From positions 38,192,001 through 38,256,000 of the forward strand of contig OZ336896.1 in NCBI GenBank assembly GCA_965287045.1: a stretch of DNA of 64,000 bases, given 5' to 3'. The DNA is from Carcharhinus amblyrhynchos (taxonomy: Eukaryota). Shown here in pieces: positions 58,596 through 59,130 of this stretch (positions are counted from its first letter, which is position 1; every line of letters begins with the position of its first letter). Position numbers and translations under genes: made by a program. The notes beneath the pieces are model-generated. The model made no database searches and was not told the origin of the DNA. It was given only the letters and a program-made list of their open reading frames with translations.

Positions 58596-59130
58596 ATGCT
58601 GACTTTCAGTTTGGAACATCGTGCTTGACGTTGTTAACCGCAAAGAACCTTATGTAATAAGAAAGTATTCACTCCTCCAGTCCATTCCTTCCGCGAGACC
58701 GTCTGCAATTTATAACGTGACAGATTCTTAACAGCTTACCACGGTCCGTTAGGTAAGATTCGAAATAAGTCCAGCGATCCGAGCAAGGAAGATGTAGAAA
58801 TGTCGTTAATCAAAATGGACCGTTCTGTAGCCTGGGTATGGTATTTATTCTGTTGTCACTTTTTGTTTTGTAGTCCTCCTGCTTTAAACAATGATTGGTT
58901 AACGTTTCAAAGAGATGTAAAATGGACTGATTGAAAATATGAATGTCTCAGAGAAATGCCACAAATATGCACAGATTACTACCCAAAAAGATAAAACATT
59001 GCGTGAACCTTTTTTCAACCGTGTCATCCCCAGTTCAATCCCCTCTTGGAATCTTTGCAATTATTTCTCGACCATAGGGTTGCAGCGAATTATCCAACAT
59101 TCCAAATGGCATTTATATGACAGCGATATT
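58596..59130 (+). pseudogene. Candidate HoxB11 pseudogene relic (exon 1)
   Basis: In order, with frameshifts and stops: M.DF (58596), *PQRT.YV, YSLLQS-FLP-ET (58666-58700), VTDS* (58717), VR*VRF.NKSSDPS (58744-58784), MHRLLP (58967), CNYFSTIGLQRIIQHSKWHLYDSD (59056-59127). Recalled Hox11 blocks: MDF, [69 protein letters not shown]. Confidence 0.7.

Follow-up and report, generated by a model that had tools for sequence, protein, structure and literature searches.

The HoxB cluster analysed here probably holds a fossil of HoxB11, consisting of promoter motifs and a homeobox at C27:38.298-38.299 Mb, within a surviving 13-12-11-10 non-coding scaffold. A preliminary description of the window (the whole stretch of 64,000 nucleotides, part of contig C27) had placed HoxB11 exon 1 at positions 58596-59130, here called the flagged stretch. 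On balance, we favour the explanation that the likeness of the flagged stretch to Hox11 exon 1 is due to chance, while the homeobox about 48 kb 3' of it is a real HoxB11 remnant. The second part bears on the first: the homeobox relic is likely the HoxB11 fossil, in another place, so the proposed exon 1 is probably a chance resemblance. The idea of a decayed HoxB11 between HoxB13 and HoxB10 is supported by this relic, but not at the position originally proposed. The coordinates of all features are collected in Table 1, where an extended window position x corresponds to C27 position 38192000 + x.

Table 1. Features of the HoxB region and of the positive control. Positions refer to the window unless a contig is named.
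Feature	Position	Strand	Evidence or remarks
Window	C27:38192001-38256000		genome of 2.9 Gb; positions above 64000 extend the window along C27
HoxB13, intact, two exons	46308..47878	+	open reading frames; Pfam HoxA13_N and Homeodomain
Element common to HoxA and HoxD, 3' of Hox13	49525..49669	+	profile of A and D copies, E 3.1e-05 in 194 kb
Short motif common to HoxA, resembling D12 promoter	52047..52074	+	23/28 identical to HoxA, E 1.9; three-way alignment
Flagged stretch: non-coding, single-copy and rich in CpG; weakly and not significantly similar to Hox11 exon 1	58596..59130	+	
Best Hox11-like local alignment	58669..58790	+	A11 profile columns 33-73, 41 codons, two stops, one frameshift; 18.2-19.7 bits
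24-codon block of the preliminary description	59056..59127	+	6.9-10.8 bits; 9-29 of 287,852 positions in 144 kb as high or higher
Start of repeat-rich (LINE) field	60001..64000	.	repeat fraction 0.92 from 60001; RVT_1
Hox11-type promoter motif pair	C27:38,298,116-38,298,138 (106116)		1.0 kb upstream of the homeobox relic
Decayed homeobox (candidate HoxB11)	C27:38,299,132-38,299,346 (107132-107346)	+	outside the window, some 48 kb beyond the flagged stretch on its 3' side
3' anchor element, follows Hox11 in HoxA and HoxD	C27:38,307,189-38,307,236 (115189-115236)		profile of A and D copies, E 1.1e-04
HoxA14 pseudogene, positive control	C2, gene-oriented cluster 42341-42679		about 6.3 kb 5' of HoxA13; stops and frameshifts

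The intact Hox13 gene of the window is followed on C27 by homeoboxes of group 10, then of group 9 and then of more anterior groups. No intact group 11 or 12 homeobox was found between HoxB13 and the group 10 homeobox, a gap of 78 kb. The HoxA cluster is located on contig C2 (its A11 is 97% identical to the cluster named for Callorhinchus HoxA11), the HoxD cluster on contig C11 (its D11 is 86% identical to a basking shark entry) and HoxC on small contigs. The window is therefore the HoxB cluster of a shark-like animal. HoxC10, HoxC11 and HoxC12 are found on small, repeat-rich unplaced contigs (HoxC11, HoxC12 and HoxC10 among C1178, C865 and C1379), and exon 1 of HoxC11 is strongly diverged and missed by PF12045. 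Exon 1 of HoxB10 (from about C27:38317600 onward) is intact, yet more diverged than those of A10 and D10, and its conserved N-terminal motif shares in this divergence. Repeats occupy roughly 60-98 kb in extended window positions and are sparse over 98-126 kb. The LINEs that had been reported to follow the flagged stretch are confirmed by the repeat fraction from 60001 and by an RVT_1 match at 63620-63997 (E 9e-15). A search of the window against Rfam gave 0 matches.

Two non-coding elements, one 3' of Hox13 and one 3' of Hox11, are common to HoxA, HoxB and HoxD, and a HoxB11 that stayed in place must therefore fall between them. The first contains a motif that we take to be CTCF-like, and the second is presumably "region IX", a name that our literature search did not find for it. 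In HoxB, five motifs resembling nuclear-receptor half-sites are crowded into 40 nt of the second element (C27:38307189-38307240), a cluster unseen in HoxA or HoxD in the same scan. A strong HoxA-HoxB conserved element lies 5' of Hox13 (43059-43205, E 2e-16) with a short match in HoxD, and C27:38310705-38310750 matches DNA just 5' of HoxD10 (blastn E 8e-04), though it is 7 kb from HoxB10 exon 1. The short motif at 52047-52074 has its HoxA counterpart 2.8 kb 3' of A13, and the HoxB copy is followed by CpG-rich DNA. This motif was not recovered by the profile of A and D copies, and profile scans revealed no significant Hox12 coding relic; to judge from the sequence, the motif and its HoxA counterpart are possible, weak traces of a Hox12 promoter.

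A Hox11 exon-2 model placed its top match between HoxB13 and HoxB10 at the downstream homeobox, which came top among 298 windows, whichever of the three decay settings was used, in a rescan of the interval that was free of score bleed from HoxB13. The alignment is colinear across a full-length homeobox, on the strand of the cluster, and contains stops and frameshifts, so this stretch, which is single copy, cannot encode a Hox protein as judged from its sequence. Its score of 12-15 bits was reached by 0, 0 and 1 of 1228 null windows and by 0, 0 and 1 of 60 shuffled models. Pairwise DNA scores against exon 2 of A11, C11 and D11 were reached by 1, 1 and 0 of 1060 windows of the interval, respectively, and by none of 952 null windows. 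Homeodomain models made separately for groups 10 and 11 each peaked at the relic (0/1228 null windows for either model), and the group 12 and 13 models had no peak there.

The position and the upstream DNA of the relic also resemble those of Hox11 genes. On its 3' side comes the element that is also found after A11 and D11. These two genes have a conserved promoter and 5' leader in common, the HoxA11 leader having an upstream ATG that is out of frame and the D11 leader, as read from the alignment, an aligned upstream ATG that is in frame. A pair of motifs found at both promoters occurs once in the B region, ahead of the relic, against one occurrence in 200 kb of null DNA. The search pattern had been loosened by one base after the relic site had been seen. 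A whole-promoter alignment upstream of the relic was not significant, and no Hox11 exon 1 was seen 0.2-1.0 kb upstream of it (175-422 of 480 null windows scored as high, at a degree of decay where the method lacks power).

It is quite unlikely that the homeobox site and the flagged stretch are both noise, with no trace of HoxB11 left in the genome. An nhmmer DNA profile misses both (the relic at E<=10), an earlier local Viterbi scan had the relic outside its top five, many models and settings were tried, and a third candidate looked good by eye and then failed. Gumbel fits predict 0.16-2.15 windows of the relic's score among 130, the expectation reaching 2 windows at the loosest setting. However, one and the same place is the peak for two separate paralogue models and for three DNA queries, on the right strand and beyond 1228 or 952 null windows, and the motif pair sits at a fitting distance from the homeobox site. 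We regard C27:38,299,132-38,299,346 as very likely a real homeobox relic.

Instead of plain HoxB11, a real relic could also represent a Hox10-type duplicate that died, or a hybrid of Hox10 and Hox11, with the flagged stretch again a chance match. The group 10 profiles score equal to or higher than those of group 11 (11.8-17.7 versus 10.5-13.8 bits), and a tree that includes the relic is uninformative on the choice between the two groups (branch 6.1, support 37). This origin is nevertheless unlikely given four observations: the motif pair is present at A11 and D11 but missing from all three Hox10 genes; the conserved element found after Hox11 in HoxA and HoxD comes 3' of the relic; D11 is its closest DNA match, with 98/215 identical positions versus 87-88 for Hox10; and no Hox10 exon-1 signal was found nearby (414/480 null windows scored as high). 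Provided that the relic is real, we consider that it is likely to be HoxB11.

The flagged stretch lies 10.7 kb 3' of HoxB13 and was found to be single copy in a genome search. Much of what the preliminary description reported of its letters was reproduced. The quoted triplets are present, with the first block at about 58675-58700, the second at 58744-58784 and the 24-codon block where Table 1 gives it, and a hand count of this last block against the proposed peptide bore out the mostly single-base codon changes (4/24 codons identical, 16/24 one base off, 2/24 two bases and 2/24 three bases). The extra sequence in the middle of the exon, put at about 150 nt, came to about 130 nt, since the spacer between the second and third blocks is 271 nt long versus 144 nt in the animal's own A11. 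The seven motif blocks in Hox11 order were not recovered as seven, and the invariant KW..R.N and HR columns fail to align. Stops and a frameshift mean that the stretch, as it reads, cannot encode a Hox protein. Two related organisms covered it fully and differed from it at 13/801 and 24/801 bases, and two of the related organisms compared carry a 1-base insertion in the first block. The related organisms gave no sign of lower divergence in the flagged stretch (24/801 versus 83/3299 for one of them), and they are only about 0-3% diverged, which is too close for recovering older states. The flagged stretch may be regulatory or neutral DNA.

To score the flagged stretch against chance, frameshift-tolerant codon profiles were built from intact A11, C11, D11 and cyclostome-like proteins, with the flagged stretch kept out of the models. 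Protein rows without the trimming motifs were left out of profile building (54 of 240 proteins, and 2 of 32 in another set), and the set of null windows was complete, with no piece lost. Searches over 144 kb with the animal's own A11 and D11 exon 1 using blastn, tblastn and nhmmer gave no match at the flagged stretch, nor did PF12045, for which only A11 and D11 exceeded the cut-off. A match beyond chance expectation was not confirmed for the 24-codon block (Table 1). A three-block chain modelled on the proposed layout ranked the flagged stretch 46-470 among 772 windows.

The best Hox11-like local alignment in the flagged stretch sits in a different register from the first block of the preliminary description, and among 84 windows on each strand, 7-20 on the plus strand and 9-19 on the minus strand did as well or better. 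The ungapped part of this alignment (17.9 bits) scored below the 14 best plus-strand segments listed. Scores for the whole stretch were similarly unremarkable: the whole-exon forward score ranked 10-145 among the 155 plus-strand windows of the interval, the Hox11 profiles were matched by 133-604 of 1228 null windows, Viterbi scores by 38-280 of 480 (the A11 profile doing best, at 38/480) and the DNA alignment score by 112-119 of 558 windows. Pairwise alignments with lax gap settings were uninformative. Against column-shuffled models there was mild enrichment, with 3-19 of 200 reaching the Viterbi score and 1-15 of 100 the forward score, but this enrichment fails once one allows for the selection of a single site from many windows, and a site chosen by eye would be expected to show it. 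Alignments that look equally neat arise in background DNA, one LINE included.

The surroundings of the flagged stretch added no support from promoter or homeobox sequences. The conserved A11/D11 promoter and 5' leader had no match just upstream of it, the motif pair was absent before it, and tiles of the A11, D11 and C11 gene regions gave 2 matches among 147 tiles against its neighbourhood, with E values of 0.012-0.016 that correspond to chance level. The statement that no exon 2 is visible nearby agrees with our searches, as none was found with the animal's own A11 and D11 or with the profiles. The search of downstream sequence for a homeobox exon that the preliminary description had proposed was negative within a few kb of the flagged stretch; its best candidate was the decayed homeobox 48 kb away.

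Two further candidates in the interval were rejected. One at 66.8-67.3 kb ranked high for some exon-1 models and had no promoter match. Another at 113.4-115.4 kb was striking by eye, but its chain tests were not significant, and the part of it that resembles a homeobox is beyond the anchor, on the 3' side. A match to the A11 3' UTR at 114.1 kb was driven by a run of G. A possible HoxB14 homeobox trace at 41550-41624 (20-22 bits), near the place where that gene would be expected, is within noise.

The power of the profiles depends strongly on the age of a relic. At 0.3 changes per base, copies of A11 exon 1 simulated with indels and an insertion of 150 nt never fell below 21 bits in 75 runs; simulated D11-derived exons had medians of 33-48 bits and minima below zero at this distance. 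Scores of simulated exons were borderline at 0.5 changes per base and at background level at 0.7 or more, so that a relic of this age (at least 0.7 changes per base) would be invisible to the profiles. A HoxA14 pseudogene in the same genome served as a positive control; it scored 50-57 bits for exon 2, with a best fit of about 0.3 changes per base, and about 20-25 bits for exon 3, and its exon 1 was undetected with the D14 model. Because the profiles lose their power from 0.7 changes per base upwards, the flagged stretch is either a chance match or too old to prove.

The flagged stretch could accordingly be HoxB11 exon 1 decayed past detection, with insertions of about 48 kb in the intron having moved the homeobox away. 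Its blocks occur in order, and a 31-codon ungapped segment runs into the second of them. A single one of 100 shuffled A11 models reached its forward score at a decay of 0.7. The DNA is CpG-rich (19 CpG in the 400 nt of 58481-58880, a count reached by 28 of 968 windows). Its distance from Hox13 is like those of A11 (12.3 kb) and D11 (13.8 kb). It lies between the anchor elements on the strand of the cluster, which is weak evidence since the allowed interval is about 65 kb. Against this, no background-window test was significant, and the promoter motif pair that is missing at the flagged stretch is present 1.0 kb before the homeobox relic. With no significant alignment from BLAST or nhmmer or in the chain, forward and null-window tests, an outcome that the preliminary description itself had named as a refutation, the identification as HoxB11 exon 1 is unsupported rather than excluded, and the chance that it is real appears small. 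An intron expanded past this exon is correspondingly improbable, and we give equally little credence to the bolder version in which LINE insertions tore the fossil's exon 1 48 kb away from its homeobox.

It is highly improbable that the flagged stretch is a copy of shark HoxA11 that arrived later by transposition or retroposition. The A11 profile does fit best among the exon-1 models, but a younger copy should be easier, not harder, to detect, and there is neither a DNA match to A11 nor a homeobox beside the flagged stretch. The lack of any significant DNA match to A11 already largely refutes such a copy.

From the scores, the anchors and their order we infer a HoxB11 that decayed in place. 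The fourth Hox11 copy produced by genome duplication would have died early, soon after the duplications, and the dead gene would have eroded where it stood through substitutions, stops and frameshifts. Later LINE insertions, mostly 5' of the dead gene, may have widened the gap between HoxB13 and HoxB10 to its present length. The flagged stretch would then be old intergenic DNA between Hox12 and Hox11.

HoxB11 is absent from described gnathostome clusters and from gene lists of jawed vertebrates. In the elephant shark, group 11 is outside the groups with four members, and the 1-2-4 model implies that HoxB11 existed right after the duplications (PMC5054437). Pseudogenes of HoxA14 and HoxB14 have been described in Callorhinchus milii (PMC3707753). 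Like the proposed HoxB11 fossil, those pseudogenes are posterior Hox paralogues that died and stayed where they were within the cluster of a chondrichthyan, and the present genome has its own clear HoxA14 relic; in contrast, the flagged stretch lacks a significant alignment, and the homeobox relic, of group 10/11, has decayed much further (12-15 bits). The relic has the same homeobox layout, promoter motif pair and anchor order as the animal's own HoxA11, HoxC11 and HoxD11. Those genes have open frames, two exons and, for A11 and D11, the PF12045 region, whereas the two sites in HoxB lack an open frame and show no significant match to exon 1. The word "pseudogene" is absent from the main text of a shark and ray genome preprint (10.1101/2025.06.08.657570), and a search of the main texts of openly available papers, judged by title and start of abstract among those listed, found none on a HoxB11 pseudogene.

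The amniote HoxB cluster lacks b10-b12 and has a long gene-free spacer with CTCF sites between Hoxb13 and Hoxb9 (bioRxiv 10.1101/2024.07.20.604409). The shark resembles amniotes in that a long interval without genes stands in place of Hoxb11 and Hoxb12. It differs in retaining HoxB10 and, probably, a decayed homeobox, which argues for erosion rather than deletion.

The preliminary interpretation was thus wrong in place and probably right in kind. The flagged stretch serves as a caution that chains of Hox motifs assembled by eye arise readily in background DNA. The evidence for a HoxB11 fossil amounts to one weak-to-moderate instance, with its location corrected. If true, such a fossil would show the manner in which HoxB11 was lost, by erosion in place and not by deletion, and would provide sequence for dating the loss.
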